Virus record (IMG/VR): IMGVR_UViG_2541047938_000006
Length of the DNA: 64,000 nt
Strand: one strand, 5' to 3'
From: a virus
Lineage: Duplodnaviria > Heunggongvirae > Uroviricota > Caudoviricetes
Position numbers and translations under genes: made by a program. The first letter of the stretch is position 1. Each line of letters starts with the position of its first letter. Under the pieces are notes generated by a model that was not told the DNA's origin, searched no databases, and worked only from the letters and a program-made list of their open reading frames with translations. This document shows positions 9,101 to 50,202 of this stretch, one piece after another.

Positions 9101-12100
9101 CGACCGGATCACCATTTTTATCCACAGCATCAAGCAGCATCACAACCGCATTTCTTTCTGTCGCGGAACGGTAAATTGCATCCGGATTGTGCATCAGTTC
9201 CGGAAGTCTCTCGATAACATCCATTGGCACCACATGTTTCACGCCATTGGTAGCCTTCCGCACAGTGTCGCGGGAGATAACCAGCGGCAAATCTGGTGCG
9301 CCAAGGTGGCGCAATACCGGCGGCGTACGCCCGATGTTTGCAGTCATTGCACCAGAACGTAACGACTTCATCATTCTGGCAAGGTCATCACGATAACGCT
9401 CGCCCTCACCTTCCGGCACTTTGAACGGATCAGGCTTACCGCTACGGGAGTACTGAGACGATGCGCCAGCGCCATCCTCACGCGGCGTGTAACCTTCCCG
9501 CACACGCTGGCCTAACGTGCGAATAGTTTCGCGAACAAGTCTGATATCGTTCAGCTCTGTCGGCTTCAGTAACCCCGTGCGACGCAGTACCCCTTTGACC
9601 AGGGCAACAACACGCTCCCACGCCGCCACAAATTTATTCGGCTGTTTCTCCGCCATATGTGCCAGAAATTCACCTGCCTGCACTTCCGGTGATTCCTTAC
9701 CATAAGACGCATCAACCTTACGCCAGGCGTCACGGATGGTGGCGTTATCACTGTCACGGGTTTTCAGTACGGTCTTAATAATCGTCTGATATTCCGCTGG
9801 CGTGACTACATGCTCCATTGCATGGTGAATAATCTCGTGACGTAACTTCTCGCGAACGGTCCGCCCGTCAGGGATGTTATCCGCCACCAGGACAATTTCA
9901 CGTTTATCCGGACGATAGAACGCATGCACCCTGCCGTAACCGTCGAACGATTCACCCGCCAGCGCTTCAGCCTCTTTCTGTGACTTCACCACGCGGACCT
10001 TCAGGTCACTGTCCTTAATGCCACTCATCACGCCACGGGCAACCGCTTCAACCTGCGGGACCGGGCTGCCTTTGGCTTCCGCACTGCGGTTAACATCCGA
10101 AATGAGATTGCCTTCAGGTGTGCGGGTCACGCCCTTACGGGAATAAAACGCAACGCCCTTGTCCGTCTTACGGGTTTTCAGCGTACTGAACAGGTGATCG
10201 AATGCATCACGAATACCGCCATCCAGTTCCGCATTCGTCGGATAAGCCCAGGTGTTATCTGTGTTGTGCTCAGGTGCCTTACGGATATTGACCAGATAAT
10301 CATTCTCCACGCCAGCCGTACGCGCTTTATCCTGAACATAACGCTCAAAGGCACGCGCCGCCATTTCAACATCCGTTGACCAGTACGGTTTTGAGCGCAC
10401 CTCATCGAGAAGCGCTGAACGACGCGGCATGTCACTGCTGTTGATCGCTTTCATCACGCCTTTAAACGCGTCGTAAACCTCCTGACGTACCGGATATTCC
10501 GCATCAACATATCTGCCGTCTTTAAATACGCGCCCGGCACGTTGTGCTTCCGTCATATAGTCGCCACCTGACGTGATCTTCCCGTCAGTGGAAACATCAT
10601 AACGACCAAAATAATTATCCAGTGAATGGAACCATTCGTGGGCCAGCGCCCCCGGTCCGTTACCTTTTGTCAGGTTGATTGCCACCTCACCCGGCTCATA
10701 GTGTGCCGCCGCCTTACCCTTACCACGGGCACCAAAAGCAAGCCCAAGACGACCATTCAGGGAAAGCGCTTTTGTCGGAACGTTCAGCACGTCAGCCAGG
10801 TCATGCAGCGAGTCATAAGCCCGGTTCAAATCAGCCTGACGACGCGGACCTTCCACATAATTACCAAACTGCACACCACGGAAACCAAACGCATCACTGA
10901 ACTGCTCCGGCGAAACATCCCCTTTGCGGCGTTCTGGTCCGGTGCGGTCGCGGTTAGTGGCGTTACGCTGCTCCTCACGCGAAATCTCCCGCATCTCCTT
11001 CACATGACGAACAAGCTCATCACGATGTGAATCAATGTACTTACGCGCATCACTGGCTGACTTAAAACCACCTCTCACCCGCATTTTGTTTTTGCCGTAA
11101 GCGATAAAAATATCGCCACTACGGGTATTCCGGTAAACGTCAAAGCTGATTTTGTCATCTGGTGACGGTGCTGTTTTTTCATCACCTTTCGCCCGTGACT
11201 TTTCCTCCTGCTCTGCAAACCAGGCTTTCGCCTTTGTCAGTAATTCATCCCTGCTTTCCGAGAAAAAGAGGTTACTCCCCTTATTGTCCTTATTGCGCAG
11301 TGAATAAAGTTTCTGTGGCGGATCGTAACGCTTCCCTCCGGCCGCCTGATACACACCGGATACCACCCGATAAGCAGAAGCCTTGTCCATCTGTGAGGGT
11401 GGCAGAGTGCGTAACAGTTGCCAGGTATCCGCGTAACGGGAGGGCATTCTGCCTTCCATCCATTCTGCGAGGCGTTTCGCGCTGACCGTTCCGTTCAGCA
11501 TTTCCGATACACTGTGTCGTACTTTTTTTACGCTCTCCCCCCAGCCAGCCGTATTGTGTTTCGTCTTCGCCGGAATATCGCTACGATACAGCGCTATCAT
11601 TGCCAGGGTGTCAGCATCAGCCCCTTCGCTCGCCAGTTTTGCGTAGTCCGGTTTCGGGAACAGTTTGCTCAGCGGCTGCGTGGCATAATCCCTGTCTTCC
11701 AGCGTTTTACCCAGTGTTTCAGCAAGCTGTGCATAACGGTGTTTGGCTGCCCCTTTAATTTCCTCGCCAAAGTCTTCAATTTTTTTGCCCCTGACTTCAC
11801 CTCCGCGCACAGTAGCTTCCCTGTCAGTAGAGACAGTTGTTTCAGATTCAGGTGCGATTGTCTCAGGCTGCGGGATGTCACGATTTCCTCCGGCCTGTCG
11901 ACGTACTTCTGCCTGCTGTGCGAGCTCAGGCAATGAGTTACGAACAGTTCGGGGAAGCTGATCAGGCTGAGGCATACGGACATTGTGTGTAATGTCCGGA
12001 GCCGGTAGACCTTCACGTACCAGCGCTGTGGCGTTCTGCTCATCCGGTGACGGCAGACCACGACGAACTGTTTCGCCCTCCAGTATTTCCCCCTGGCGAC

Positions 12101-14486
12101 CAGCGGCATTTTCCGGTGCCTGCGCACGTCCTTTCTGGAAACTCTGGCCCTTCACCTCACCGGTTGTGGTAAAACGACCACCACGTCCGGCCTGATTTTC
12201 ATCCGGCGTACGCGCTACTTCTCCCGGTAACGGATATCCCTGTCCGGGATGAATATCGCCGGGAGCGGGAAGGCGTGGACGCTCAGTTAACTCCTGTGCT
12301 GTCGGACCGGCATCACCTTCAGCCATCTGGGAACGCACCAGTTCTTCCGCCGTCGGCGCGTTGCCACGGGCAAGACGGGCCTGCACTTCTGTATCATCCC
12401 CCGTAAAACCACGGAATCGCGGGTCACGCATGAACGCGGGCTGTTCCATCGGATCAGCATCAGTAATACGCTCTCCGTCAGCCAGAGTGTTAATGGTCTC
12501 CGTTGCCACATCTTCAGAGAACGCAGGATTATCCATTTCAACGGCATACTGATTCTCGCCTTTCTTCACTACGGACGGTTTCAGGCCGGTGGCGCTGGCA
12601 TTGCGGAAAACGTCGCTCCCCAGAGCACTTTTTTCATCCGTGAAATAACGGTTGTCCGGACGCACCTTTTCAATGCGTTCTGCTGGTCTGGACGCACCAC
12701 TCCCGTTAATTTCAATACGAACTTCATCCGGATCGCGGAACCGCACCGTCGGGTAAATACTCCCGTCGCCATCATCCGCATTTTCCGGCTGTGGCTGTGC
12801 CTCCGGTCTGGCCTCCTGCTGAGGGCGAAGCACATCACGGATAGCCTGTAACTGCTGCTCTTCAGTATCAGTACGCCCTTCCTTCAGGCTGAGTTTTCGG
12901 TATTCCTCAAGCAGTTCAGGGCGCGGCTTCGCCTTCAGCTCATCCATCACCGCCTGTCGCTTCGCCTGTTCATCCAGTTCATTTAACAGCTGGCTGGCGG
13001 CTTCCCGGCGATGAACGGCAGACGTGTCTCCCTCAGGTGCCATATCCGCATCAGCATACTGTTCCAGAAGTTGCTCGCGATTCATGCCCTGCATGGATTC
13101 GCGATGCTGTGCCACCGGATCAGCCGGTTCGGGTTGCGGGGCTGCTTCACCCTGCTGTACGACTTCAGCCTCACGCATGGCGGTTTCTTCTGCGGCCTGA
13201 CGTTTTCCACGATATCCGGCAACCGCACCGAACGGTGCGCCCATCGCAGCACCAAGGGCTGCACCTTCGATCGTTGCGTCAGCCACGCCCTCCCCCGGTG
13301 ACACATCCATTCCGGCGGTCTCACGCAATGCCGTGTTTTCCTGATAGCGTGAATAGCCACCCTGCGCCGCATTAATCGTCCCCTGTTCCGTGGCATTTCT
13401 GACAATGCCGCTTTTAACGGTCTTCGCCGTGCCCCGCATCGCCAGATTAAACAACTGAGCATCGCCCAGTTTTGCCGCCATGGCATTCACAGCCAGCAAT
13501 TCAGGATCGGTTGCCAGCTGCGCGCGCACCTCATCGGCAACACGCTCTTTTGCCAGGTCCATTTTCTGGCGATCAGTAAGCTGTGCGTGCTGTGGATCTG
13601 CATCAATTGACAAAAACGTCTGCTGAAATTTCGGTGACTGCGCCAGCTCAGCGTAATCCGCATTAAGAACAGCATCTGCTGCCGACATTGCACTCTGCCC
13701 CTGTGCACTGGCTGTGGAATGGGTGATCAGGCCCGCATGGAAGAAATCCGTCATTTTTTTATCGACAGCTTCTGCTGCCAGTGCCGTGGCTCTTTCCGGC
13801 TGCACTCCTGCCGCGATGTATTTTTTCTCCAGCCCGGCGGTCAGCGTTCTTTTCAGTGCGACCTGTCCCACCTTTCTAACCACACCGCCAGCAACCAGAT
13901 CAGGTACAAGCGCACCAATCAGGTTTACACCCTTCGTCAGCAAGACCGCAGAATCATCATAGCCTTCACTCATTGGCGTGTTCAGCGCACGAACAGCACC
14001 CGGCGACATCTGATCTGTCAGCCATTCATCCGAGGCTTTGGCACCATCACTGACTGCCTTGCCTGTGGCCTTCAGACCTTTACCGACAGTATCAGTCACC
14101 GCGTTTTTCCCTGTTCCATCGGGAATGTTTTTAATCGCATCTCCAACAGAAGGTGGTGCGCCCAGTTCCTTTTGCGTGGAGGAAGGCGGCATGTAAACAT
14201 CCGTCATGAAAGACGACAACCCGGCAAGCGTTTTTACAGGATTATTTACAAGTGCATCACCGAGTCCACGGGCCATTTCCCCTGTTCCCCGGACGGACTG
14301 GGCGAAACCTTTACCCATTGTTGGCAATACATCGCCCAGGCTGAACGACGTGCTGTGATCAACAGCGTTCTCCGGGTTGTTGAAAAAATCCTGCCAGTAA
14401 TTTTCTCCCGGCTGCTTAATGTTCAGACTGCTGCGGTTCTGGTTACCCAATTGCGCTTCAGGGCGCTGCTCATCTGAAAAAGCCAT
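6108..14486 (-). CDS. Giant virion-associated polyvalent protein (2792 aa) with two zincin-like HExxH motifs
   Basis: Single uninterrupted 8.4-kb ORF with RBS GGAG 5 nt upstream; motifs ALAHEWFHSLDN and LRHEIIHHAMEH; sits at the distal end of the virion gene cluster. Confidence 0.6.
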   Translation of the reverse strand: MAFSDEQRPEAQLGNQNRSSLNIKQPGENYWQDFFNNPENAVDHSTSFSLGDVLPTMGKGFAQSVRGTGEMARGLGDALVNNPVKTLAGLSSFMTDVYMPPSSTQKELGAPPSVGDAIKNIPDGTGKNAVTDTVGKGLKATGKAVSDGAKASDEWLTDQMSPGAVRALNTPMSEGYDDSAVLLTKGVNLIGALVPDLVAGGVVRKVGQVALKRTLTAGLEKKYIAAGVQPERATALAAEAVDKKMTDFFHAGLITHSTASAQGQSAMSAADAVLNADYAELAQSPKFQQTFLSIDADPQHAQLTDRQKMDLAKERVADEVRAQLATDPELLAVNAMAAKLGDAQLFNLAMRGTAKTVKSGIVRNATEQGTINAAQGGYSRYQENTALRETAGMDVSPGEGVADATIEGAALGAAMGAPFGAVAGYRGKRQAAEETAMREAEVVQQGEAAPQPEPADPVAQHRESMQGMNREQLLEQYADADMAPEGDTSAVHRREAASQLLNELDEQAKRQAVMDELKAKPRPELLEEYRKLSLKEGRTDTEEQQLQAIRDVLRPQQEARPEAQPQPENADDGDGSIYPTVRFRDPDEVRIEINGSGASRPAERIEKVRPDNRYFTDEKSALGSDVFRNASATGLKPSVVKKGENQYAVEMDNPAFSEDVATETINTLADGERITDADPMEQPAFMRDPRFRGFTGDDTEVQARLARGNAPTAEELVRSQMAEGDAGPTAQELTERPRLPAPGDIHPGQGYPLPGEVARTPDENQAGRGGRFTTTGEVKGQSFQKGRAQAPENAAGRQGEILEGETVRRGLPSPDEQNATALVREGLPAPDITHNVRMPQPDQLPRTVRNSLPELAQQAEVRRQAGGNRDIPQPETIAPESETTVSTDREATVRGGEVRGKKIEDFGEEIKGAAKHRYAQLAETLGKTLEDRDYATQPLSKLFPKPDYAKLASEGADADTLAMIALYRSDIPAKTKHNTAGWGESVKKVRHSVSEMLNGTVSAKRLAEWMEGRMPSRYADTWQLLRTLPPSQMDKASAYRVVSGVYQAAGGKRYDPPQKLYSLRNKDNKGSNLFFSESRDELLTKAKAWFAEQEEKSRAKGDEKTAPSPDDKISFDVYRNTRSGDIFIAYGKNKMRVRGGFKSASDARKYIDSHRDELVRHVKEMREISREEQRNATNRDRTGPERRKGDVSPEQFSDAFGFRGVQFGNYVEGPRRQADLNRAYDSLHDLADVLNVPTKALSLNGRLGLAFGARGKGKAAAHYEPGEVAINLTKGNGPGALAHEWFHSLDNYFGRYDVSTDGKITSGGDYMTEAQRAGRVFKDGRYVDAEYPVRQEVYDAFKGVMKAINSSDMPRRSALLDEVRSKPYWSTDVEMAARAFERYVQDKARTAGVENDYLVNIRKAPEHNTDNTWAYPTNAELDGGIRDAFDHLFSTLKTRKTDKGVAFYSRKGVTRTPEGNLISDVNRSAEAKGSPVPQVEAVARGVMSGIKDSDLKVRVVKSQKEAEALAGESFDGYGRVHAFYRPDKREIVLVADNIPDGRTVREKLRHEIIHHAMEHVVTPAEYQTIIKTVLKTRDSDNATIRDAWRKVDASYGKESPEVQAGEFLAHMAEKQPNKFVAAWERVVALVKGVLRRTGLLKPTELNDIRLVRETIRTLGQRVREGYTPREDGAGASSQYSRSGKPDPFKVPEGEGERYRDDLARMMKSLRSGAMTANIGRTPPVLRHLGAPDLPLVISRDTVRKATNGVKHVVPMDVIERLPELMHNPDAIYRSATERNAVVMLLDAVDKNGDPVVSAVHMKATDKRLEINKVASVYGTENGKKLKSMEMAGLTLYRKEKLSRDNPQYSGLQLPKEERSYRGSVDKILYPEDIRKGPYYSRTSSLTPEETIASRFVRQMQDKFQVLKAVQENIRKTGGKIDDSNNAYMAEELFHGKAENDLNVMKERYVQPLAKLLADYKIAQADLDEYLYARHAPERNAHIAKINPKMPDGGSGMTNAEAAEIMQRVRNSGKQAQYDRLAGIVDDMLARRRELIREAGLEESGVVDAWQNAYRYYVPLKGQDVDGVVSLPRTGKGFTIGGRESRQAMGRASRAQSPSTQAIQDLSESLIRNRKNEVGNAFLKLVQDNPDKDYWQVFTDDKPDTMRAIAERVDPETGETRREVVERPVPMAMMADRYFTTKKDGKTYYIKLHDPRLMRAMKNMGPETSNAVIRTLGKVNRFLATVNTSYNPEFLVSNFIRDVQTAVMNLKAEQGRSDGKLKGLDNLSALAVVKDSRSAMSAVYASLRGKTLTGNGAQWQKVWKEFVEDGGKTGWFNMGDLEGQQKEMDRLVSLAKGGWKGQSIGAWHSFLNLVEDANGAVENALRLSAYKHARDAGLSRQQAASLAKNMTVNFNRRGEQGALMNSLYMFANASIQGTANLVRTLGHLNGDGPLPERLRWKNLNVPQKIALAAVGAGYLLGSLNRSVAGEDDDGVNWYDKVPSHVKERNLVIMKSVFGGKAGEYWSIPLPYGYNVFFLLGHTAEGVAAGDLTASRAAGNVVGGILGAFSPVGSETSETLSGALLKNAAPTILRPFANLAMNENFMGAQIYQENMPFGTPKPDSQLGRRSTPEAYKAFASWLNAFSGGSQYRPGAVDITPESLKFWIDYISGGTGRFISKTTDAAVKSLNGIDIPEQQVPFLGKISGEVMPYADQQKMYDRMTEVAQYHAELKSLTGAERTAFIDENNGKLLMNGLMQDTRKRLKDLRKQRDAIYADSSLSLAQQAAMVKSVERDMKVAVDRFNREYNKKVGVD

Positions 14487-14496
14487 ACAGACTCCA

Positions 14497-14524
14497 GTAA
14501 AAAAAGCCCGACACGATGGTCGGG
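14497..14524 (-). terminator. Intrinsic terminator between internal virion protein gene and giant gene
   Basis: Hairpin GCCCGACACGATGGTCGGGC followed on minus strand by TTTTTTT, then RBS and ATG of giant ORF. Confidence 0.6.
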
Positions 14525-36581: not shown

Positions 36582-37368
36582 CCAGTCTCCCCGAATTACT
36601 CATTTCATGCAGCGATGACACGATGTCACTGACAGGCGTAACAACGCCCCGACGCTGGCTGGTCAGAATATCGGTTTCCGCTCTGAGTTTATCTCTGGCA
36701 GCGTTGATTCTTTCCCGGTCAGCACGAAGTTTTGGTGCTGTTTCCGCCAGAACGTCCAGCGTCAGCAATGAGCGTTCAATTGACTCGATACGGGCAATAT
36801 TCCGGTCAAGGGCCTGTTCTGCTTTGAGTATTTTGTCGTACAGGGCAACACGGGTTTCCACGTCAGCCGCCTCTTTCAGGTCGGCGAACATTTTTTTCAG
36901 TGTTCCTGTTACTGAAAGTGCGCGGGCACGGGTGAACACCAGTTCATCGAACAGCACCATATCGGACGCATCATCCATGAGGTTATCTGCCTCAAGATAC
37001 TTCGCATATCCACGGTGTCTCACGGCGTGGGTGTTACGGTCGCTAAACCGGGCAACGGGGTGAGGATTGCCCGATCTGCTGTTGCGTTTCGTTTCTGCCG
37101 AATTTGCGCAGTTTTTTTCAGAATTTTTTGCGCATTTTTCATCGTCGGAACCCGCGTCATTGCTGGGTTCTTCATCTGAGATGTCATGATCGATTTCATG
37201 ATCGGTTTTATGATCGATTTCATGATCGATTTTGCCCATTTTTATACGGGTTCTGGCGGTGTTGTAATTAATCTTTTTCTTACGGCACCACTCCAGTAAT
37301 GTTATTCCCGTTTCGGCATGTTCGCGTCGGAATGCCTGCTCCAGTTTTTTCCAGTCCAGCTTTGCCAT
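36562..37368 (-). CDS. Terminase small subunit (putative), contains 4 tandem 12-bp repeats
   Basis: 268-aa ORF immediately upstream of terminase large subunit with overlapping stop/start; internal repeats 37185-37232. Confidence 0.45.
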   Translation of the reverse strand: MAKLDWKKLEQAFRREHAETGITLLEWCRKKKINYNTARTRIKMGKIDHEIDHKTDHEIDHDISDEEPSNDAGSDDEKCAKNSEKNCANSAETKRNSRSGNPHPVARFSDRNTHAVRHRGYAKYLEADNLMDDASDMVLFDELVFTRARALSVTGTLKKMFADLKEAADVETRVALYDKILKAEQALDRNIARIESIERSLLTLDVLAETAPKLRADRERINAARDKLRAETDILTSQRRGVVTPVSDIVSSLHEMSNSGRLDDIPEE

Positions 37369-37667
37369 GTCACTTTCTGACGTCCTCTGTTAAAAACTGA
37401 CGCATAATGACCGCTGTGATTTTTCAGAATTCACACAGCAGCGTCTTGTTTGATTGATATTTACACAATATGGTTGTTTTATCCGGTTTCTTCCACCACC
37501 GCACCGGACAGGCGGCCATGCGGGAAAACGCTCACGTTACCTGAAAACGTGGAAAGCCCGGTGTGCATCGTTTTTGATTATCCCCACACACTCGCGCAGG
37601 AGGTCCAGTGTCTGGCTGAGGTCTCTGTTAATGCGGGAATACGGCGACGATACGGCGCATGGCTATG

Positions 37668-38219
37668 TCAGGCTGAAATGCCTTTATCAAATCCGGGTAA
37701 CGCAATCTGCCCCTGCTGCTCCAGCCTGTCCAGCCTTGCCAGCAACTGAGGCTTCTTCACCCTGCCCCAGCGATTGAGCAAACGACCTGACATACTGGCG
37801 ACATCTTTCTCTTTCATGTACTCCAGCATTACAGCGTTGCGCTCCGCCTCCAGATTCGCCAGACCTTGCTGAATAAGCTCAGCCATCCAGTTGAAAGCCT
37901 GAATGTACGCTTCCTTAAAGGTCATAGCAGCTTTCCCCGTAAAACCAAATACCAACATCGTCCAACCGTCTTTTGTCATTCGATATATGGGCTGGGGTTT
38001 ACCGTTCTGTAACTCATTGTTTTCATAGCAAAGCGCAAAATTGCGCTCTGCAAATTCTTTTGAGCATTGTTGAACAACGGCTCTTGTTTTCCGCAATACA
38101 TCTTTGTGTTCTTTGCCAAATGCTACGGCAACCTTTCGGGTATCCGTCACCGGCTCGTTGCCTGTCACAAAAACAAGATCGCGGAAATCAATACCGTTAA
38201 CAATCGTCGGATAGTTCAT
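37668..38219 (-). CDS. Rha-family phage regulatory protein
   Basis: 183-aa ORF; N-terminal region resembles Rha/antirepressor family. Confidence 0.6.
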   Translation of the reverse strand: MNYPTIVNGIDFRDLVFVTGNEPVTDTRKVAVAFGKEHKDVLRKTRAVVQQCSKEFAERNFALCYENNELQNGKPQPIYRMTKDGWTMLVFGFTGKAAMTFKEAYIQAFNWMAELIQQGLANLEAERNAVMLEYMKEKDVASMSGRLLNRWGRVKKPQLLARLDRLEQQGQIALPGFDKGISA

Positions 38220-38362
38220 AGCGTCTTACCTTTCAGAAAATTGAGCCTGTCTCACAGAAAAGCCGCCCCGAGATGGTCGCCACCATATACGGCAGTTCTC
38301 AGGCTCAACTTTCTGAAAGGCTCGGGGATGTGATATGCGCGTGAGATGCGCGATGAAATTCA

Positions 38363-38395
38363 GATATGAAAAAGCCAGCGATTAAGCTGGCTCTG
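38363..38395 (-). terminator. Intrinsic terminator after Rz
   Basis: Hairpin AGCCAGCTTAATCGCTGGCT followed by TTTTTCATAT on minus strand right after Rz stop. Confidence 0.55.
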
Positions 38396-38863
38396 TTAAT
38401 TCAGGCACTGAGTGCGGATATATTCCTGTGCCCCTTCCAGCTGCTTCTGCATTGTCATCAACCGTTCTCTGAGGATGAAATAATCCCGTTCAGCGGTGTC
38501 TGCCAGTCGGGGGCCGGTTGCATTATCCATGCCGGAGGTGCCGGTGGCTTCACGCACGGTACCGGAGCAGGTGGCGTTGATCCGCAGGCGCTTACGACCA
38601 GCAGCAACATCAGCACGCAGAGTTTCATTTTCAGCTCTCGCATCGGCTAATTCCCTCGAGTATTTTGCATCGAGCGCAGCAACATCGCGCTGGCGCACCT
38701 GCATATCAGTAATGGTGGCGTTTGCCAGCTCCAGCTCTCTGGCTTTTTTATCGCGCTGCGCTTTGTAGGTGATGGCGTTATCGCGGTAATGGTCTGTTGC
38801 CAGCCACAGCGCACCACAGCCACCCGCCAGGACAATAATCACCACACACAGAACACGGCTCAT
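38396..38863 (-). CDS. Rz: Rz i-spanin
   Basis: 155 aa; close match to recalled lambda Rz ([16 protein letters not shown]...[16 protein letters not shown]). Confidence 0.9.
38458..38643 (-). CDS. Rz1: Rz1 o-spanin lipoprotein embedded in Rz (+1 frame)
   Basis: 61-aa ORF inside Rz; lipobox and proline-rich [25 protein letters not shown] motif matching lambda Rz1. Confidence 0.85.
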
Positions 38864-39355: not shown

Positions 39356-39889
39356 TTATCTGTCAATTCCCCAGCACGCCAGCGCGCTCTCCTGGTCACG
39401 CCGCGATACCTGCCCGTAACAGTTATTTGAGCGATTCCGACAGTCCCTGCCGCCGTCATATATCCATCGGCGGATTTCAGCACATGCACCTTTCCGGTCT
39501 CCGGCGTTCAGTTTCCGGTAAAACGTTGAGGTGAAGCATTTCGAAGGCCCGATGTTGTACGGACAGAATGACGCGATGCCCGCTTTCTGCGGTTCAGTCA
39601 GTGGCAATTTGATGTTTTTCTCCACCCATGCCAGCGCCTTATCACGTTCAATGGCATTAACCTGAGCGCATTTTTCCTTCGACAACTTCATGCCCGGGAC
39701 GACAGGTTTGCCATCCACCATGATGGCACCACGGCAGATGGTCCAGATCCCCGCACCATCACGGTATGCCGTGGTGTGGTTACCTTCTTTTTCGTCAAGA
39801 AACTGGTCGAGGATTTCAGGCGCAGAAGCACCCGTGGCAATCAGCGCCAGAACGGCTACCGATAAACCATAGTGGAGTTTCCTGCTCAT
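39356..39889 (-). CDS. SAR endolysin (T4-lysozyme-like glycosidase with signal-anchor-release N-terminus)
   Basis: 177 aa; N-terminal weakly hydrophobic Gly/Ala-rich segment then EGNHTTAYRDGAGIWTICRG catalytic region; downstream of holin. Confidence 0.8.
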   Translation of the reverse strand: MSRKLHYGLSVAVLALIATGASAPEILDQFLDEKEGNHTTAYRDGAGIWTICRGAIMVDGKPVVPGMKLSKEKCAQVNAIERDKALAWVEKNIKLPLTEPQKAGIASFCPYNIGPSKCFTSTFYRKLNAGDRKGACAEIRRWIYDGGRDCRNRSNNCYGQVSRRDQESALACWGIDR

Positions 39890-39893
39890 CAGC

Positions 39894-40109
39894 TTACTCT
39901 CCCCGCGCAGCTTTGCGCCGGTCTTCTTTAATCTTGAAATACAGGTTCGTCAGGTACGTCAGAAGCCCTAAAAATAAACTCCCCAGCACACCAATCGCAG
40001 TCCAGTGGGAAGGCGTCACATTATCCAGTATCTGAAGCAACCAGTACCCCGCCCCCGCTGCCGAGGTGCTGTACGATGCACCCGTTGCTATTTTTTCCAT
40101 CTGATACAC
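39894..40109 (-). CDS. Class II pinholin (phage 21 S-like)
   Basis: 71 aa with dual start MYQMEKI..., two TM segments and C-terminal ...[22 protein letters not shown]. Confidence 0.85.
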
Positions 40110-40501: not shown

Positions 40502-40696
40502 TTAAGAAGGTTGTTCCGGAATGAGTGGGGCTTCTGTTTTTGCTCCGGCTGACTGAGTGGCGCTGATTTTCTCAGCGGCCCTTTTGTCAATCTGTCTGCG
40601 CCAGAAGTCGCGTACTGCCCTGTATCCACCTGAAAGCAGATACAACACACAGACCACCGTACAGAAGTACAGCATTAACTGGTTGATGAATGTCAT
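40502..40696 (-). CDS. Hypothetical small membrane protein
   Basis: 64-aa ORF with N-terminal TM helix. Confidence 0.3.
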   Translation of the reverse strand: MTFINQLMLYFCTVVCVLYLLSGGYRAVRDFWRRQIDKRAAEKISATQSAGAKTEAPLIPEQPS

Positions 40697-40794
40697 GGTT
40701 TATTACCGTTACTGTTGACAATGAGAATTGTTTTCATTTAGAAATGATTGATGTCGAAAGCATCCTTTCGTTAGATTCTCCATTGGGATTACCT

Positions 40795-40831
40795 CCGCCA
40801 GTCTCCATTCCTGTTGCTGGCGGTTTTTTTT
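40795..40831 (+). terminator. Intrinsic terminator, plus-strand orientation
   Basis: Hairpin CCGCCAG-N15-CTGGCGG followed by TTTTTTTT. Confidence 0.45.
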
Positions 40832-40837
40832 CGTCTG

Positions 40838-41934
40838 TTATGCTGCTACGGCATTCACACCAACAGTAAGACTTTCAATCAGCACAGGGTAAGTTGCCGC
40901 ATTTCCGGTAATATCCGTAATTGCCAGCGCGTTGGCCTCAAAGGCTGCATTCGTCCATCTGGTCAGCGTAAACGGTTTTCCTGCTGCATTATCAAGCACC
41001 GGCGTGACGTTCAGCGAGCCACCACCCGGGAAGCGGAAAGTCAGCGTGTGCCAGTCGTGATCGAACGGACCATAACTACCAAGCCGCTGTGATGTGGTGT
41101 TTGCATGATACATCACATTGATGTTTGTTTTATCAGTCTGCAGATAGAAGGCCGCAATATAACCCTCCTCTGATTCCGCTCCCGGCCATCCACTACCGCG
41201 CCAGTAAATACCCGCAGAATATTGATTTGCAGAAGCATTGAGAGATACATCATCGGGGATTTTAAAGCGCAGCGTGATTTCACCGCCGTTATCGAACAGC
41301 TCCTTCCCCTTACCGGCATCAATTGCGTGCGATACTTTCCAGGTCTTTTTCTGTGCAAGACCATTTTCTGGTTTTTCAAGACGAAGGGCTTTTTTACCTG
41401 AACCACTGTCACTGACCAGCGTGTTTTTGACATCTGTCAGCGTCCAGCCCTGCGAAGCCAGAGCGGCATTTTCCGCATTCACATCATAAGCCAGCACTGA
41501 CTGTATCTTTGTCGGGACAACGGCTTCAGGCTGAGTATCGCCACTCTCCTGTGCTGGTTGCGATACGCCTCCGCCTGAAGAAACCGCGGCTTTTGTCACT
41601 TTCCCGGAAACAAAATCTGCCACTCTGCCCACATGCAGAAGAATGGCTGTTGCCAGACGGTCGGAAATAATTCCGCGACGCGCCCATGAACCAAAGTGGG
41701 TTTTACGATCGGATGTTGTCCAGCTCTTCGCATCCGTTCGTCCACCGGAACCATAATACCCGATAGCCGGAATATCCGGGTCTTCTGACGGTTCATTGGT
41801 CCCGACTTTCTGACCATTGTCATCCATCATAAACGGCACAAAGAAGATATTTTTACCGGCTTTGGTTTTGTATGCGCCATAGACGGCATCGTATTGCGCT
41901 GAATACGTCTCCTTCCAGTAGTACGTCGTGTCAC
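40838..41934 (-). pseudogene. nanS-p-type sialate O-acetylesterase, C-terminal part (gene split by IS insertion)
   Basis: N-terminus of this fragment (SDTTYYWKETYSAQYDAVYG...RGIISDRLATAIL) matches recalled C-terminal region of E. coli YjhS/NanS; continues the frame of ORF 44488..45429 across the IS. Confidence 0.8.
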
Positions 41935-42127
41935 TGCGTATTTTCATGAAAGGAGATCACTCAATAACTTCCATCGAGATCGGGTAATAACATTTGAACA
42001 GATCGCTGAATAACATCGATGGAGATCACTTTTGACTCATTTTGTTATTCAGTGATCTCCATCAATGTTATTGGAACTTCACAGGTGTGTTGATCTGTAT
42101 CTTTTGCCATTCCGGTAAAGGATACCT

Positions 42128-43669
42128 ATGCCAACAGTTCCAATTTCTATGAGAAAACTTAAAGAAATTCTTAGGCTTAAATACGGTGTTGGACTCAGCC
42201 ATCGACAAATTGGTCGTAGTCTTGCAATCTCCCCTTCCGTTGTATCCAGATATGCTAATCGGGCGGCTCAACTTGGCATAAAGCAGTGGCCCTTACCTAC
42301 AGGATGGGATGATACAAAACTAAAACATGCGTTCCTTCAGACCCAGGTTAAGATGAAGAAGCACTCTCTGCCTGACTGGGCTACAGTACACCGGGAACTG
42401 CGTAATAAATGCGTGACGCTGCAGCTACTCTGGGAAGAATACTGTGAGCGTAATCCAGGCGGTTTTTACAGCTATAACCATTACTGCCGGATGTACCGTG
42501 AATGGCTCAAAACCACTTCACCATCAATGCGTCAGGTACATAAAGCTGGCGAAAAACTTTTCGTTGATTACTGTGGACCTACCGTTGGCGTTACCGACCC
42601 TGAGACCGGAGAAATAAGAACTGCTCAGGTCATCGTAGCTGTTCTCGGGGCATCAAGTTACACATGGGCAGAGGCCACCTGGTCTCAGCAGCTTGAAGAC
42701 TGGGTGATGAGTCATGTTCGCTGCTTCCAGTGGTTGGGTGGCGTTCCTGAACTTGTTGTTCCGGACAATCTGAAAAGCGCCACATCCAGGGCATGTAAGT
42801 ATGATCCTGACGTTAACCCTACCTACCAGCAGATGCTTGAGCATTATAATGTCGCAGTTTTGCCTGCGCGGCCACGTAAACCGAAAGATAAAGCCAAAGC
42901 TGAAGTTGGCGTTCAGGTTGTTGAACGCTGGATCATGGCCCGAATCAGGCATGAGATCTTCTACAGCCTTGCATCGCTTAATCAGCGCATTCGGGAGTTG
43001 CTGGAAAGACTGAATAACAAAATAATGCAGAAGTTGGGTTATTCACGTGCAGAACTCTTCATCCAGCTTGATAAACCCGCACTGAAGCCTCTTCCTGAAG
43101 CCAGTTACAGTTACACCCTGGTGAAGAAAGTCAGAGTTCATGCCGATTACCACGTGGAAATCGACAAACATTACTACTCGGTTCCATGTTCGCTGTTAGG
43201 CCAGCAACTGGAAGCATGGATCTCCGGAGAACTGGTAAGACTCTTCAATCAGGGGCAGGAGGTTGCTGTGCACCCGCGCAAGCGTACTTATGGCTACAGT
43301 ACCCGCAACGAGCACATGCCTGAAGCTCATCGACAGCATGCCACCTGGACGCCAGAGCGTCTTCTGGAATGGGCGGGGCACATAGGCAGTGAAACTCATA
43401 GTTATGTGCTTCATATACTGAACTCTCGTCCACATCCGGAACAAAGCTATCGCTTCTGCCTTGGACTCCTGAACCTTCATAAAAAATACAGTAAAGCCAG
43501 ACTTAATGCAGCATGTGCAAGAGCTCTGAAAACAAAGGTATGGCGTCTGTCAGGTATTAAATCGATCCTGGAAAAAGGTCTGGATAAACAACCTGTTCAG
43601 GATCCAAAACCAGATCTGTTATCCACGATGGAACACGAAAACGTACGCGGCAGTGAGTATTACCACTGA
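42128..43669 (+). CDS. istA: IS21-family transposase IstA
   Basis: 513 aa, N-terminal HTH and DDE-type core; followed by IstB. Confidence 0.85.
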   Translation: MPTVPISMRKLKEILRLKYGVGLSHRQIGRSLAISPSVVSRYANRAAQLGIKQWPLPTGWDDTKLKHAFLQTQVKMKKHSLPDWATVHRELRNKCVTLQLLWEEYCERNPGGFYSYNHYCRMYREWLKTTSPSMRQVHKAGEKLFVDYCGPTVGVTDPETGEIRTAQVIVAVLGASSYTWAEATWSQQLEDWVMSHVRCFQWLGGVPELVVPDNLKSATSRACKYDPDVNPTYQQMLEHYNVAVLPARPRKPKDKAKAEVGVQVVERWIMARIRHEIFYSLASLNQRIRELLERLNNKIMQKLGYSRAELFIQLDKPALKPLPEASYSYTLVKKVRVHADYHVEIDKHYYSVPCSLLGQQLEAWISGELVRLFNQGQEVAVHPRKRTYGYSTRNEHMPEAHRQHATWTPERLLEWAGHIGSETHSYVLHILNSRPHPEQSYRFCLGLLNLHKKYSKARLNAACARALKTKVWRLSGIKSILEKGLDKQPVQDPKPDLLSTMEHENVRGSEYYH

Positions 43670-43680
43670 TACGGGATCCA

Positions 43681-44430
43681 ATGATGAATCATCTTTACGA
43701 ACAACTGACCGCACTTAAACTCACCGGCTTCCGTGATGCGCTTAAAAAGCAACTTGCTCAGCCGGGCACATACCAGGAGCTGGGCTTCGAAGAACGCCTG
43801 TCATTACTGACAGCAGAAGAACTAACCTGCCGTGAAAACAGGAAGGCAGAGCGTCTGATCAAACATGCACGGTTCAGACTTAATGCTGAGTTATCAAAGC
43901 TGGATTATCGTAACAATAGAGGGCTGGACAGGGCCCTCATCCGTTCACTCAGTCAGGGAAACTGGTTAACCCTGAAACAAAATATTTTACTGACCGGGGC
44001 CACCGGCAGCGGTAAAACGTTCCTGGCATGTGCACTTGGTCATAATGCCTGCCGACAGGGATACAAGGTCTACTATTATCGCCTTAAAGCGCTGATGGAA
44101 CAGTGCTATCAGGGGCATGCTGATGGAAGATACAGCAAACTTTTGACCAGGCTGAATAATAGCGATCTGCTGCTTCTGGATGACTGGGGGCTGGAACCTC
44201 TCTCATCAGAACAGCGTAGCGACCTGCTGGAAATAGTGGATCTGATGTACCAACGAGGCTCAATCATCGTAGTGAGCCAGTTGCCGGTGGAAAACTGGTA
44301 CAAAATGATCGGAGACTCCACACATGCGGATGCCATCCTAGATCGACTGGTTCATGGCAGTATCAAGATCGAACTTAAAGGAGAATCAATGCGGAAAATA
44401 CAATCTCCGTTGACCGAAGGAGATCAGTGA
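43681..44430 (+). CDS. istB: IS21-family ATP-binding helper IstB
   Basis: 249 aa with Walker A GATGSGKTFLACALG and Walker B LLLLDDWG. Confidence 0.9.
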   Translation: MMNHLYEQLTALKLTGFRDALKKQLAQPGTYQELGFEERLSLLTAEELTCRENRKAERLIKHARFRLNAELSKLDYRNNRGLDRALIRSLSQGNWLTLKQNILLTGATGSGKTFLACALGHNACRQGYKVYYYRLKALMEQCYQGHADGRYSKLLTRLNNSDLLLLDDWGLEPLSSEQRSDLLEIVDLMYQRGSIIVVSQLPVENWYKMIGDSTHADAILDRLVHGSIKIELKGESMRKIQSPLTEGDQ

Positions 44431-44515
44431 AGGTAATTTAAAAACGGTTCTGTGAAAGTGACACGAACCGATCTCCATCGATGTTACTCACCGATCTCCT
44501 TCACGGTAATACGCA

Positions 44516-45399
44516 GTGTCACCACAAATCCAGGGCACCAGAGAAGGAGAAGCACCAGCGCACTGACCGGATACTCCCGCCAGGTCAGAACGGTATTTTT
44601 CCACCATGGCATCAAACATGGCGGGCTGACTGGCGTACGCTCCCTGTTTTAAATCAAACTCGCCCTGCATCCAGACAACACAAAGTAGTATGTTTTTGGG
44701 GTTTGCCTTCAGCGCGGCCTGAGTGCGTGTCAGCAGGTCTTTATACAACGGCTTATCAACGCCCCATCGTTCAGATTTATCCGACGCTCCTGAACTTTCA
44801 CTGAACGTTCCGTCAGCACCGGCTGTAAACGCAGAGCCACCACGACAGCACGGCACTAACAAAATACCCGCATTTTCCGGCATAAAGGGCAACAGCTTTT
44901 TGGCAATATGCAATCCCTGTCCGACACACCCATACTGCTCTGCGCTGGCTTTCGGATGAGAAAAACGGCTCAAATCCTGCACATCATGCAGGCAGTGGTC
45001 CGCCGGAATGATGTCGTTATATGCACAGGCCGCACCACCCGGTGTCACCGTACTGCGACGCGCCAGCTGTTTAATACGCGGGTCCGGACGGTCATATGTC
45101 TCCGGCAGCGGCAGGCCTTCACCATACGCCATGCCGTTTGACTGTCCGGCCAGCGCAATGACAAAGTAATATTCTGGTTCAACAACAACAGTCCGGGTAC
45201 CATCTCCCCCCGGTGAAACTACCGGAGAGGTCATATCCCCTTCAGCGACTATAGCCTGGATAAATTCAGCACCATAACCCGCGTTTGAGATAATCGGACT
45301 ACCATAGGGTTGCCAGCCTTCCTTCAGTTTTTGCGTCAGTTTTCCTGCGAGGTCTGACGGCGATGATGCCCTGACCACGTCATAGTGTTTAAATGCCAT
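44516..45399 (-). pseudogene. nanS-p-type sialate O-acetylesterase, N-terminal part (DUF1737-like + esterase start)
   Basis: Start MAFKHYDV with RBS GGGAGG; region YYFVIALAGQSNGMAYGEGLPLP...CCRGGSAFTAG matches recalled YjhS/NanS N-terminal half; reading frame ends inside IS terminus. Confidence 0.8.
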
Positions 45400-45600
45400 T
45401 ATTCCTCCCGGCAGGGATAGTGTATGCAATCAAGATAAGGTGCGGGCTGACGTCAGTCATGGACAAGGGTTCAGAAACAGGAGGATGACTACAGCCCGCA
45501 ATACGAAAAAGACCATACAGTTGCGCAGAGTGATTACTATCAGGTATTATTCGCCAGCTGAAAATTGATCACTTCACGTTTTGTTGTTTATTCCTTGCCA

Positions 45601-45629
45601 CCCGCGCTTCCCGGCGCGGGCTTTTTTTT
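45601..45629 (+). terminator. Intrinsic terminator, plus-strand orientation (antisense to late operon)
   Basis: Hairpin CCCGCGC-TTCCCG-GCGCGGG followed by TTTTTTTT. Confidence 0.5.
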
Positions 45630-45630
45630 A

Positions 45631-46380
45631 TCCAACAAGAAAGCCCCTCCGGAGAGGGGCTGGAGAGTAGCGCTATGTACCGTTCATGCATGGTGCAGGG
45701 TGCCTCCCGGTGAGTTCAGTATCAGCACCTGAACCCGCACCAGAAAGGATAAGGGGTGTGACCAAACACCTGTCGCTGATATGCCCCTCCGCACAGGGGG
45801 ATTCACCATGCCATATTTTTTTAACAAACTTCCCGCTGGCCAGACAATAATCGCCAGCCTGAATTGTGAGTAACGTGGCATTTTACGGGAAAACTGTTTT
45901 CTGCAGTAAAAAGGCCCGCCGGAGCGAGCCTGGAAGGATAGCGGTCATGTGATGCCGGTTTCCCGGTAACTCAGCATCGGTATCTGAGTCAACGTTTTCT
46001 CTACTGGGTCATTTCCGATACGTTCCGCCTTCCGGCAGACTTTCATCACGTCAGAAAATATAGCACCCTGAGTAACAGGACAGTACTCAGAATTCAGGAA
46101 ACTGTGACACATCCTGCACAGAAAAGCCCCTCCGGAGAGGGGCTGAAGTATAGCCTAATTTCTGTCTGTCGCATGGTGCCAGGTGCCTCCCGGTAAATTC
46201 AGCCTGGCTACTGAATTTGCATGTTCGCTGGATCATACACTTTGCCAGATGCCCCGCCGCTGAGGGGGATTCACCACGCGATGCAATTTTTAACAAATTC
46301 TCCGGCAGCCAGACAATCATCAAGCTGTGGAATTGTGAGGTATTTAAAAATTTCGCAGCCTCTTGCCACCCGCTTTTCAC
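45631..46380 (-). repeat. Tandem direct repeat units (about 250-480 bp) at the stx-equivalent locus, each ending in an intrinsic terminator on the late strand
   Basis: Blocks AAAGCCCCTCCGGAGAGGGGCTG, GCATGGTGC(C)AGGTGCCTCCCGGT and GGGGGATTCACC...GCCAGACAAT recur at about 45640, 45905 (degenerate) and 46120; minus-strand hairpin plus U-tract at 45631-45660, 45906-45930, 46117-46143. Confidence 0.6.
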
Positions 46381-46658
46381 AAAAATCGTATGTAGAAGGC
46401 CGCAGCGTAACTATCACTGATGAATTCAGGACACCCAGAGGCTACGGCTCAGTTTGGATTGTGGCGGCCGGAATCGAACCAGCTCCCATCGGTGCGCTGC
46501 CGATTACAATACGCGCGGCGATCCGCTACATGACTAGTATTTTCACAGTCGCCTGTCTGCTAGCTCGCCATTGAGCTTCACCACAACGATAAGAGCACTG
46601 CGCACACCTTTCACCAATTCCACGAGGTCTGCGGGTTCAATGCTCTTACCTGTTGTGC

Positions 46659-46690
46659 AAACAAAAAGCCCCGACATTTCTGCCGAGGCC
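46659..46690 (-). terminator. tR'-like terminator downstream of putative late promoter
   Basis: Hairpin with two G-U pairs followed by CTTTTTGTTTGC on minus strand; adjacent segment 46385-46650 resembles, from memory, the lambda sequence just downstream of pR'. Confidence 0.45.
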
Positions 46691-46796
46691 TTTACCTAAT
46701 CTAGCCAGTATGCCGATCCTAAATATTATCGACGACCGAGGTAAATCAGGATTTCTCTTTCGCTTCTCAGTGCGCTTTTGCTCCGAGCATACACAA

Positions 46797-46825
46797 AACA
46801 TACTACTTTCATTTCTCGAAAGCAA
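46797..46825 (-). promoter_or_regulatory. Candidate late promoter pR' (TTGCTT-17-TATGTT)
   Basis: Sigma70-like -35/-10 with 17-bp spacer between Q-like gene stop and tR'-like terminator. Confidence 0.3.
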
Positions 46826-46849
46826 CGCATTTACAAAAAATATTTTGCA

Positions 46850-47464
46850 TCATCCAGCAATCACTAGAAGTTCTTTCTCCAATTCTCGCTTCATTGCATA
46901 AAACATTTCTGAATCAAGGACCCTCTCGCACCACACGACCCGCCTCCGGCAATACTGAATATCAACTCCTGTTATCTGAGAAATCATCCTGGCGATATCT
47001 TGCGTGCTGTCGCGATTGCAATATCGCCTAATAGCTACATCACGGACAGGGCTTTCACGATGAAAGGTCTCAACCATCACACGTTCAACGAAAGCAGCAT
47101 CATCGGATTCTTTGGCGAGAGCAATGATATTACCTGCCGATGACTGAGGGATGACCAGTTCTCGGGCTTTCTGATGGAGTTCATCTCCACGTAGTCCGTC
47201 TTCTTCATACAGACGCATGACAACAGACTCAATCTGCTTAGCTTTGTCATCGCTCCACTGACTGCGAATCATCAGTCGCCCAATAACGTTAATTGCACCA
47301 CAAGGAGAATCATCACCAGCGTTAACATTTCCCCATACCTGTAGCATGTAGTGAACCCATGCTTTCTGACGAGAGTTAATGATTTTCTTCGGATGCCTCC
47401 ATATGCGGCGGAAATGAGCATCATTAATAAAGTTAACCATGCCGAATACTGGGGTTAGCCGCAT
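46850..47464 (-). CDS. Putative late-gene antiterminator (Q-like by position)
   Basis: About 205-aa ORF immediately upstream of the pR'/tR' region and downstream of nin genes; start ATG overlaps upstream stop (TGATG); no recognisable similarity to lambda Q. Confidence 0.4.
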   Translation of the reverse strand: MRLTPVFGMVNFINDAHFRRIWRHPKKIINSRQKAWVHYMLQVWGNVNAGDDSPCGAINVIGRLMIRSQWSDDKAKQIESVVMRLYEEDGLRGDELHQKARELVIPQSSAGNIIALAKESDDAAFVERVMVETFHRESPVRDVAIRRYCNRDSTQDIARMISQITGVDIQYCRRRVVWCERVLDSEMFYAMKRELEKELLVIAG

Positions 47465-47706
47465 CACAGCCCCCATCCTTTACAATGACACCACACTTCA
47501 AACATTCGTTTCACAACTTCACGGCAGTAGAAACCGTCAGCATCACGTGTCAGGTCATAGCGATCTCCGTGCTTCAGTCTCATATAGCATTCGAATAATC
47601 TGTTCATATACTCTTCGCCATGAACTCCGCTATTACGCTGCTCATGCGCTTTTCCAGACGACCTGAATAAAGCCATGCGTTCAGGCACCTGCTGAATATC
47701 ACGCAT
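47464..47706 (-). CDS. Hypothetical protein; N-terminus MRDIQQV resembles start of 933W-type Q
   Basis: 81-aa reading frame starting MRDIQQVPER (recalled Q933 starts MRDIQ.VLERWGAW) then diverging; overlaps ninH stop. Confidence 0.3.
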   Translation of the reverse strand: MRDIQQVPERMALFRSSGKAHEQRNSGVHGEEYMNRLFECYMRLKHGDRYDLTRDADGFYCREVVKRMFEVWCHCKGWGL

Positions 47707-47899
47707 CAGTAGCTTTCCCCTTATCCCATCCACGATGAACCATAAGGACACCGTTGACGACGGCGTGCCGTTTGCCTTCTTTATCACCGACATATTTTCT
47801 GACCGTAGCACGATTACAGTTCAGTTTTCGTGAAACTTCAGTCATATTGCCTCGTGCCTGGATAAGCAATTCCGGTATTGTTTGAATTGTGGCGTTCAT
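47699..47899 (-). CDS. ninH: NinH
   Basis: 66 aa; TIPELLIQARGNMTEVSRKLNCNRATVRKYVGDKEGKRHAVVNGVLMVHRG matches recalled lambda NinH. Confidence 0.8.
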   Translation of the reverse strand: MNATIQTIPELLIQARGNMTEVSRKLNCNRATVRKYVGDKEGKRHAVVNGVLMVHRGWDKGKATDA

Positions 47900-49189: not shown

Positions 49190-49215
49190 CCAACAAAAAA
49201 GGAGCCGAAGCTCCT
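49190..49215 (-). terminator. Intrinsic terminator after Bro-type antirepressor gene (inverted copy of 3297-3320)
   Basis: Hairpin GGAGCTTCGGCTCC plus TTTTTTGTTGGG on minus strand. Confidence 0.55.
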
Positions 49216-49221
49216 TTAGTT

Positions 49222-49896
49222 TCAGAATTCAAATTGTCTTGCCCGCAGGCTTTTCAGCATTGGCATGGCCCGCTGGATAACGGAACTTGACATGTCGAGA
49301 CGTGTTACCTCCCTTAGTAGCGCGTCTCTGTTCTTCGTCACCATGTAGATGGTCTCAAACGCAATGTCATACAGCTTGTTCGTGTATGAGGAGTTCAGCT
49401 CTTTCATAATGGGATACAGGTGTTTGCTGAGGTCCTGGGCTTTTTCCATCCAGAGCTGCATGTAGCAAAGGAGGATGATTTCTTCGGCTGTGAATTGTGG
49501 CTGAATCTGCGGCTGCTGTTCGGTTGGTGCTGTTTTTCCCTGGCTGAAATAGCAGTCTTCCAGTTTTTCGAACACTTCCCACGCCTGATCGGTTTCTAGC
49601 ATTTTTGCGTGGCGGGCTGCGCCTCGTTCTGTCCAGAGGATGAGCGAGCGGGTTTTGGGAGAGATTTTCACCTCATTTTGCGACTCGTTTAAAACTAGTC
49701 GCAAATTTCTGAGTTCATCACCAACAGCTTTAAAGAAGTGCTTTCCCTCAATAAACCGAGATTTATTTTCATGGTGATTCTGCTGTATACGGATTGTTTC
49801 TGTTCCATAAAGGCGGGCAAGCAACTCAGTTGTGATTACCGGAATCTGGTTATAGGTAACAGGGGAAAGGTTTTTGACAGAGATTTGAACAGTCAT
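49222..49896 (-). CDS. Phage antirepressor-like protein (Bro/ORF6-type N-terminal domain + KilA-C-type C-terminal domain)
   Basis: 224 aa; C-terminal about 112 aa almost identical to 2657..3292 product. Confidence 0.65.
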   Translation of the reverse strand: MTVQISVKNLSPVTYNQIPVITTELLARLYGTETIRIQQNHHENKSRFIEGKHFFKAVGDELRNLRLVLNESQNEVKISPKTRSLILWTERGAARHAKMLETDQAWEVFEKLEDCYFSQGKTAPTEQQPQIQPQFTAEEIILLCYMQLWMEKAQDLSKHLYPIMKELNSSYTNKLYDIAFETIYMVTKNRDALLREVTRLDMSSSVIQRAMPMLKSLRARQFEF

Positions 49897-50202
49897 AACG
49901 ACCTCGCGTTTCGATAATTTTTACCTCACCACCTTCAGGTGCTAATCATCGTGGTGGCGAACTGTGCGGGGTTAGCACTACCGGTCGAAACATCCGGCGA
50001 GCCTTTCGGCTCCCCCACACAGCCCGCCATAAATCGCGAATGTGACTGTGCTTAGCGCATAAAAAAACCGCCAGCGCGGTTATGCACCGTTTCGATATCC
50101 GGGGTGCTAATCCCGACGCCAGATTTTGCTGGCGTGCGAAGAATATAATCCCGGATATGTGTTGTCGTCAACATACCTTGAATGTATATAACAAATTTGT
50201 TA

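Follow-up and report, generated by a model that had tools for sequence, protein, structure and literature searches.

An ISEc12 insertion with a 7-bp target-site duplication in a nanS-p-type esterase gene of a 933W-like prophage without stx

Phage-borne esterases of the NanS-p group de-O-acetylate sialic acids (PMC8319020), and their genes are known targets of insertion sequences (IS): nanS-p of Shiga toxin 2a (Stx2a) phages has been found interrupted by IS1203/IS629 (IS3 family) and by ISEc8 (IS66 family) (PMC10462455). The element ISEc12 is known to split tssM in clade C/H30 of Escherichia coli ST131, where it is flanked by a 5-bp target-site duplication (TSD) (PMC10711316). Here we analyse a stretch of 64,000 nts from the IMG/VR virus record IMGVR_UViG_2541047938_000006 (Caudoviricetes), hereafter called the window, in which a copy of ISEc12 lies within a nanS-p-type gene. 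We give a probability of about 95% to the reading that ISEc12 inserted into the nanS-p-type gene of a 933W-like prophage without stx and duplicated 7 bp of the target (GTGTCAC), with an expected loss of the esterase activity.

With the tssM insertion this event shares the element itself, the character of a simple insertion, a short TSD, the splitting of a gene and inheritance within a lineage. It differs in its target, here a prophage nanS-p, and in the length of the TSD, which is 7 bp here and 5 bp there. The interrupted Stx2a-phage genes belong to the same gene family, occupy the same late-region position and are likewise disrupted by an IS; however, the element found here is of the IS21 family, the prophage has no stx and the nanS-p allele is a divergent one. 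Moreover, two STnc100 units are present between Q and nanS-p in our prophage, and tRNA or stx genes, which we sought in this interval, were not found. Another interrupted nanS-p copy is that of phage PA18. Our literature search did not find ISEc12 described in a divergent nanS-p of a prophage without stx. The event is an ordinary case of a known kind, as published examples exist both of nanS-p interrupted by an IS and of other genes knocked out by ISEc12.

The ISEc12 element and its target site

The inserted element occupies positions 41935-44515 (2581 bp), and its ends, read directly from the window sequence, are TGCGTATT...AATACGCA. Over its entire 2581 bp it is 100% identical to many E. coli copies labelled by RefSeq/PGAP as 'IS21-like element ISEc12 family'. 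The two encoded proteins exceed the respective NCBIfam equivalog cut-offs, IstA scoring 310.5 bits against NF033546 (cut-off 160 bits) and IstB 270 bits against NF038214, 'IS21-like element helper ATPase IstB' (cut-off 200 bits); the latter also matches Pfam IstB_IS21 (E=2e-67) and is annotated in RefSeq as a protein of 248 aa starting at the second ATG (43684). These protein scores, together with the DNA identity to annotated ISEc12, bear out the assignment to the IS21 family made in the original prediction. Imperfect TG...CA inverted repeats accompanied by multiple subterminal repeats are typical of this family. Both are present here: the left inverted repeat (IRL) and the reverse complement of the right one (IRR) are the same at the first 8 of 8 bases and match at ~36 of 49 positions with one gap, while the motif GGAGATC(A/G) is found at IS positions 19, 42 and 88 in direct and 119 in inverted orientation, and twice at the right end. 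ISEc12 is widespread: among 5,426 complete E. coli genomes, 1909 show matches, with 3 places per genome as the median. As the copy is identical to others over its full length, it is intact and presumably active.

The element is flanked by two copies of GTGTCAC. The chance that a given 7-mer matches at a fixed position is about 1 in 16,000 (4^-7); more decisive, an intact homologue in strain UPEC-245U contains a single GTGTCAC precisely at the junction, and this empty site, which can be observed directly, indicates that the proposed TSD is genuine. A staggered cut made during ISEc12 transposition would have duplicated these 7 bp of the target. TSDs of the IS21 family measure 4-8 bp. When we inspected seven other full-length ISEc12 copies, a 5-bp TSD was seen in four, a 7-bp TSD in one and none in two. 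Therefore, a 7-bp TSD is rarer than one of 5 bp and yet falls inside the range of this element, since one of the seven other copies displays it as well. A composite transposon or a recombination between two ISs finds no support: the window was searched for a second ISEc12 end or copy and only this one was found, nor was a second nanS-p found in it.

Upon in silico deletion of the IS and one copy of the repeat, the two gene fragments join on the minus strand into one open frame (...SLVPWICGDT|TYYWKETYS...) with no further stop or frameshift, as the original prediction had proposed. The restored open reading frame (ORF) is 1974 bp long and, with its ATG at 45399 as the start, encodes 657 aa. It aligns end to end and without gaps, at 99.7-99.9% identity, with intact genes annotated as 'SASA family carbohydrate esterase' in 20 of the 5,426 complete genomes. 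With respect to the UPEC-245U gene (locus L001) there is one synonymous base difference and no amino-acid difference, and Escherichia phage PhiR12_3, recorded with ECOR13 as its host, encodes a protein 100% identical to the restored one. The restored gap-free ORF, the empty site and the identity with the PhiR12_3 protein jointly establish a simple insertion with a 7-bp TSD, and no evidence contradicting the insertion itself was encountered. The coordinates proposed earlier for the element and the repeats agree with the sequence; the one to be amended is the upper end of the gene, which had been set at 45429. This position is a TTG, the first codon of the mechanically called ORF, whereas in the annotation of intact homologues the gene starts with the ATG at 45399. 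The coordinates of the relevant features are collected in Table 1.

Table 1. Position of the ISEc12 insertion, of the two nanS-p fragments and of neighbouring late-region features in the window
Feature	Position	Strand	Remarks
ISEc12 (IS21 family), complete copy, 2581 bp	41935-44515	+	100% DNA identity to annotated copies
IRL, begins 5'-TG, GGAGATC(A/G) subterminal repeats	41935-41983	+	
istA, 513-aa DDE transposase	42128-43669	+	NCBIfam NF033546 'IS21 family transposase'; Pfam rve, Mu-transpos_C_2
istB, helper AAA+ ATPase, 249-aa ORF	43681-44430	+	NCBIfam NF038214 'IS21_help_AAA'; Pfam IstB_IS21
IRR, terminates CA-3', two inverted GATCTCC motifs	44468-44515	+	
TSD, left copy GTGTCAC	41928-41934	no strand	single copy in intact gene
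TSD, right copy GTGTCAC	44516-44522	no strand	single copy in intact gene
nanS-p 5' fragment, 303-aa ORF	44488-45399	-	295 native residues + 8 IS-encoded (AYYREGDR), stop inside IRR
nanS-p 3' fragment	40838-41934	-	codons 296-657 + stop
Q-like antiterminator gene, upstream of nanS-p	46850-47476	-	phrog_753 'anti-termination protein Q-like', E=3.5e-68
STnc100 sRNA/terminator unit	46116-46309	-	Rfam RF02076, 138.7 bits
STnc100 sRNA/terminator unit	45631-45840	-	Rfam RF02076, 129.9 bits
Holin gene, downstream, same late operon	39894-40109	-	PHROG match; likewise annotated in L001 and L002
Endolysin gene, downstream, same late operon	39356-39889	-	PHROG match; likewise annotated in L001 and L002

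The interrupted gene and the consequences of the insertion

The restored protein has Pfam matches to DUF1737 (residues 3-53), SASA (83-274) and DUF6645 (508-618). Its residues 71-391 match the E. coli NanS/YjhS structure (PDB 3PT5, E=3e-118), and residues 438-653 match the lectin-like structure of the NanS-p C-terminus (6YP6, E=3e-43); NCBIfam holds no model for the esterase. Judging from these homologies, the restored gene has the NanS-p architecture, namely DUF1737, an SASA/SGNH esterase and a lectin-like C-terminal domain, the same three-domain arrangement as in NanS-p, phi24B gp84 and 933W L0105, with a C-terminal domain homologous to 6YP6. The domain order, the two structural matches and the position between Q and the holin gene all support the view that the interrupted gene encodes a nanS-p-type esterase. 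Homology with chromosomal NanS (YjhS) is also strong over the esterase domain. Catalysis by NanS relies on Ser19 and His301, and Gln18 belongs to its oxyanion hole (PMC9063846); these three residues are conserved, and in the 3PT5 alignment their counterparts in the restored protein are Ser87, His372 and Gln86. Compared with the NanS-p of Stx phage ArgO145, the restored protein displays 59% aa identity overall, the N-terminal and esterase domains being well conserved and the C-terminal domain the most divergent. Based on this value, the gene is a divergent allele of the NanS-p family, here in interrupted form, whose product is predicted to de-O-acetylate Neu5,9Ac2. The gene had previously been described as one thought to release sialic acid; this wording is imprecise, since NanS-p strips O-acetyl groups from sialic acid and does not release it from mucus (PMC8319020).

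Of the 657 codons, 295 precede the insertion, which falls within the SGNH/SASA esterase domain, and the IS is oriented opposite to the gene. The 5' fragment retains DUF1737 and the first part of the esterase domain, including Gln86 and Ser87, while the 3' fragment comprises the remaining esterase domain with His372, then a linker and, at the C-terminus, the lectin-like DUF6645 domain. The nucleophile Ser87 and the general base His372 are now located on separate fragments. Translation from the native start would enter the IS for 8 codons and then stop, yielding a 303-aa protein that would keep DUF1737, Ser87 and Gln86 but be devoid of His372 and of the carbohydrate-binding domain at the C-terminus; public assemblies indeed have a called gene of 303 aa that matches DUF1737 and SASA. 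As to the 3' fragment, the mechanical ORF at 40838-41947 borrows its ATG from the left end of the IS (MKIRS-DTTYYWKE...), and no obvious Shine-Dalgarno or purine-rich ribosome-binding site precedes this ATG at 41947. Because Ser87 and His372 are separated and the 3' fragment has no start of its own and no obvious ribosome-binding site, we strongly infer that the sialate 9-O-acetylesterase activity from the interrupted locus is abolished.

Some considerations qualify this reading. The loss of function is deduced from the sequence, and the two halves might complement each other as fragments; this is unlikely, since the 3' fragment has no obvious ribosome-binding site and the break falls within the fold. 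In addition, chromosomal nanS or further nanS-p copies may hide any phenotype, the genomes with this nanS-p allele having 2-7 nanS-p-like places each. The esterase lets E. coli use O-acetylated sialic acid, and a genome usually has redundant genes of this sort; the consequence, the loss of one accessory esterase copy, is small beyond strain-level annotation.

The alternative that survives best concerns the other end of the protein: the 303-aa N-terminal fragment might still decorate the capsid, so that the loss would be confined to the esterase and carbohydrate-binding modules. The NanS-p homologue gp84 of phi24B is reported to be a capsid decoration protein that binds hexons through DUF1737 (residues 1-54), with Tyr42 as the anchor; its density stops at Gly54, and a cleavage near an SSP motif separates DUF1737 from the esterase (bioRxiv 10.64898/2026.04.10.717836). 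Several of these features are found in our allele as well: residues 1-55 are ~83% identical to those of a Stx-phage NanS-p, Tyr42 and Gly54 are kept and are followed by a TSP motif, and the native promoter, the start codon and the first 295 codons are untouched. Furthermore, the same N4-gp56-type major capsid protein occurs in this prophage, along with a 933W-like structural module. On the other hand, the source is a preprint about a different phage, the fragment ends in the middle of a domain, which makes its stability, folding and processing uncertain, and hexameric assembly may need the missing parts. On balance, we regard the retention of a capsid role as possible, though only tentatively. 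The insertional inactivation proposed in the original prediction is supported as far as the split esterase domain and the separated catalytic residues are concerned, and may hold for the enzyme part only in light of the capsid role of phi24B gp84 described in the 2026 preprint. If the preprint is right, this allele may offer a natural truncation that bears on the sufficiency of DUF1737 for capsid binding, and also on whether the esterase serves the phage or the host.

A different possibility is a polar knockout: with 2.6 kb of DNA inserted into the gene that opens the late operon, the lysis and morphogenesis genes would no longer be transcribed, or the genome would outgrow the packaging capacity, and the prophage would be left crippled. 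The gene order lends itself to this scenario, given that nanS-p has the Q-like gene on one side and those for holin, endolysin, terminase and portal on the other, the whole set being on the minus strand, and that past the premature stop ~2.5 kb of IS are read in antisense and untranslated, with several weak terminator-like hairpins. The length of the prophage, ~63 kb including the IS, compared with 61-62 kb in the IS-free relatives, could likewise count in its favour. However, RNA polymerase modified by lambda Q passes terminators of both the intrinsic and the Rho-dependent kind over many kilobases, and a polymerase modified in this way would read through terminators in the IS, where the minus-strand hairpins are short and their T-tails poor. 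As for packaging, the terminase of a related phage is annotated as headful-type, which is tolerant of small gains in size. Finally, Stx phages with an IS in or near nanS-p have been recorded as phage genomes (PMC10462455; phage PA18). We therefore consider polarity improbable. Q-antiterminated late transcription may still cross the IS and reach the lysis and morphogenesis genes; since Q-modified polymerase ignores terminators and the minus-strand hairpins of the IS are weak, these genes are probably still expressed upon induction. An outward promoter at an IS end, which might have driven the 3' fragment or the lysis genes, was also considered and rejected, as there is no minus-strand promoter-like site and no Shine-Dalgarno before the ATG at 41947; a consensus scan of positions 40600-47800 returned no promoter-like site on the minus strand, and overall fewer sites than in shuffled sequence.

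Beyond the simple insertion with loss of the esterase, which remains our preferred reading, a further-reaching outcome can be imagined, in which the DUF1737 module would still be made, virions would be decorated without the esterase and carbohydrate-binding modules, and a phage that is still viable could take an active ISEc12 along as cargo from host to host. We hold this combination to be rather doubtful.

Distribution and age of the insertion

The two hybrid ORFs are present with exactly the same sequence in GCA_000461255.1, GCA_002538945.1, SRR3987722 and SRR958752; the first of these, a scaffold of 3.39 Mb, is evidently where the window comes from. Over 2-13 kb, the contigs of these four datasets match the window at 100% identity, and the short-read contigs break inside the IS. 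The junction had no match in the 5,426 complete E. coli genomes, and the exact junction 39-mer was absent from the JGI metagenome contigs; among the data searched, it is present only in draft/scaffold and read-set assemblies. Because at least four public datasets share both junctions with identical flanks, the insertion marks a clonal lineage and not a single isolate, and the two junction sequences constitute a handy marker for the lineage with this prophage. That the event is 'probably recent', as suggested originally, appears reasonable, in that the IS does not differ from other copies and neither gene half has acquired another lesion; 'recent' is nonetheless a relative term for an insertion common to at least four public datasets. 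IS elements commonly give misjoins in short-read scaffolds and the source record is a scaffold, but the idea that a misassembly or a recombination between IS copies placed the gene halves beside the IS is effectively refuted, with a likelihood close to nil, by the perfect 7-bp TSD, by flanks collinear with IS-free relatives (>19 kb on the right, at 99.95%, and the whole prophage on the left) and by the identity of both junctions in four independent datasets.

The surrounding prophage

The host of the insertion is a 933W-like lambdoid prophage without stx or tRNA genes, integrated beside ynfF in E. coli. At the left boundary, the first ~2.1 kb of the window (1-2220) match ynfF of strain SCU-104. 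In that strain, ynfF is followed by a remnant of a truncated 4Fe-4S protein (ynfG), and the integrase together with the rest of ynfG is found just past the position equivalent to the right end of the window. A 69-bit match to sRNA-Xcc1 (2528-2616) is located just inside the left boundary.

On the minus strand, the late region is organized as Q-like gene, sRNAs, nanS-p, DUF1378, DUF826, holin and endolysin; Stx phage ArgO145 has the same gene order, with nanS-p in the matching position. Each STnc100 copy ends in a GC-rich hairpin plus a T-run, and the unit, of ~470 bp, is duplicated between the Q-like gene and nanS-p, in the slot where Stx phages have tRNAs and stx. The pair looks like a duplicated pR'-leader/terminator module.

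SCU-104 carries the closest IS-free relative, to which the prophage is 97-99.95% identical outside two mosaic patches. The first (24003-27111) falls in the tail-fibre/adhesin region; the second (37128-38396) lies between a small terminase-like gene and the spanin gene, where UPEC-245U has a Rha-family regulator gene. Positions 6100-14500 (minus strand) are taken up by a distal gene of ~8.4 kb, annotated by homology to locus L017 as encoding an LPD38 domain-containing protein. Its neighbours are PAPS reductase/IbrB-like genes and a Panacea-domain gene, accessory cargo typical of 933W-like phages.

At 49950-50148 (minus strand), Rfam identifies the Hfq-binding RNA isrK, the C4 antisense RNA and a1/b1 targets, all above the gathering score. 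This cluster adjoins an ORF6N/antirepressor gene and resembles the c4-ant immunity module of P1/P7 type. Finally, a 309-bp inverted repeat, 97% identical, is formed by positions 3011-3319 and 49195-49503. It falls within two antirepressor-type genes, one towards either end of the prophage, and could serve as a substrate for inversion.

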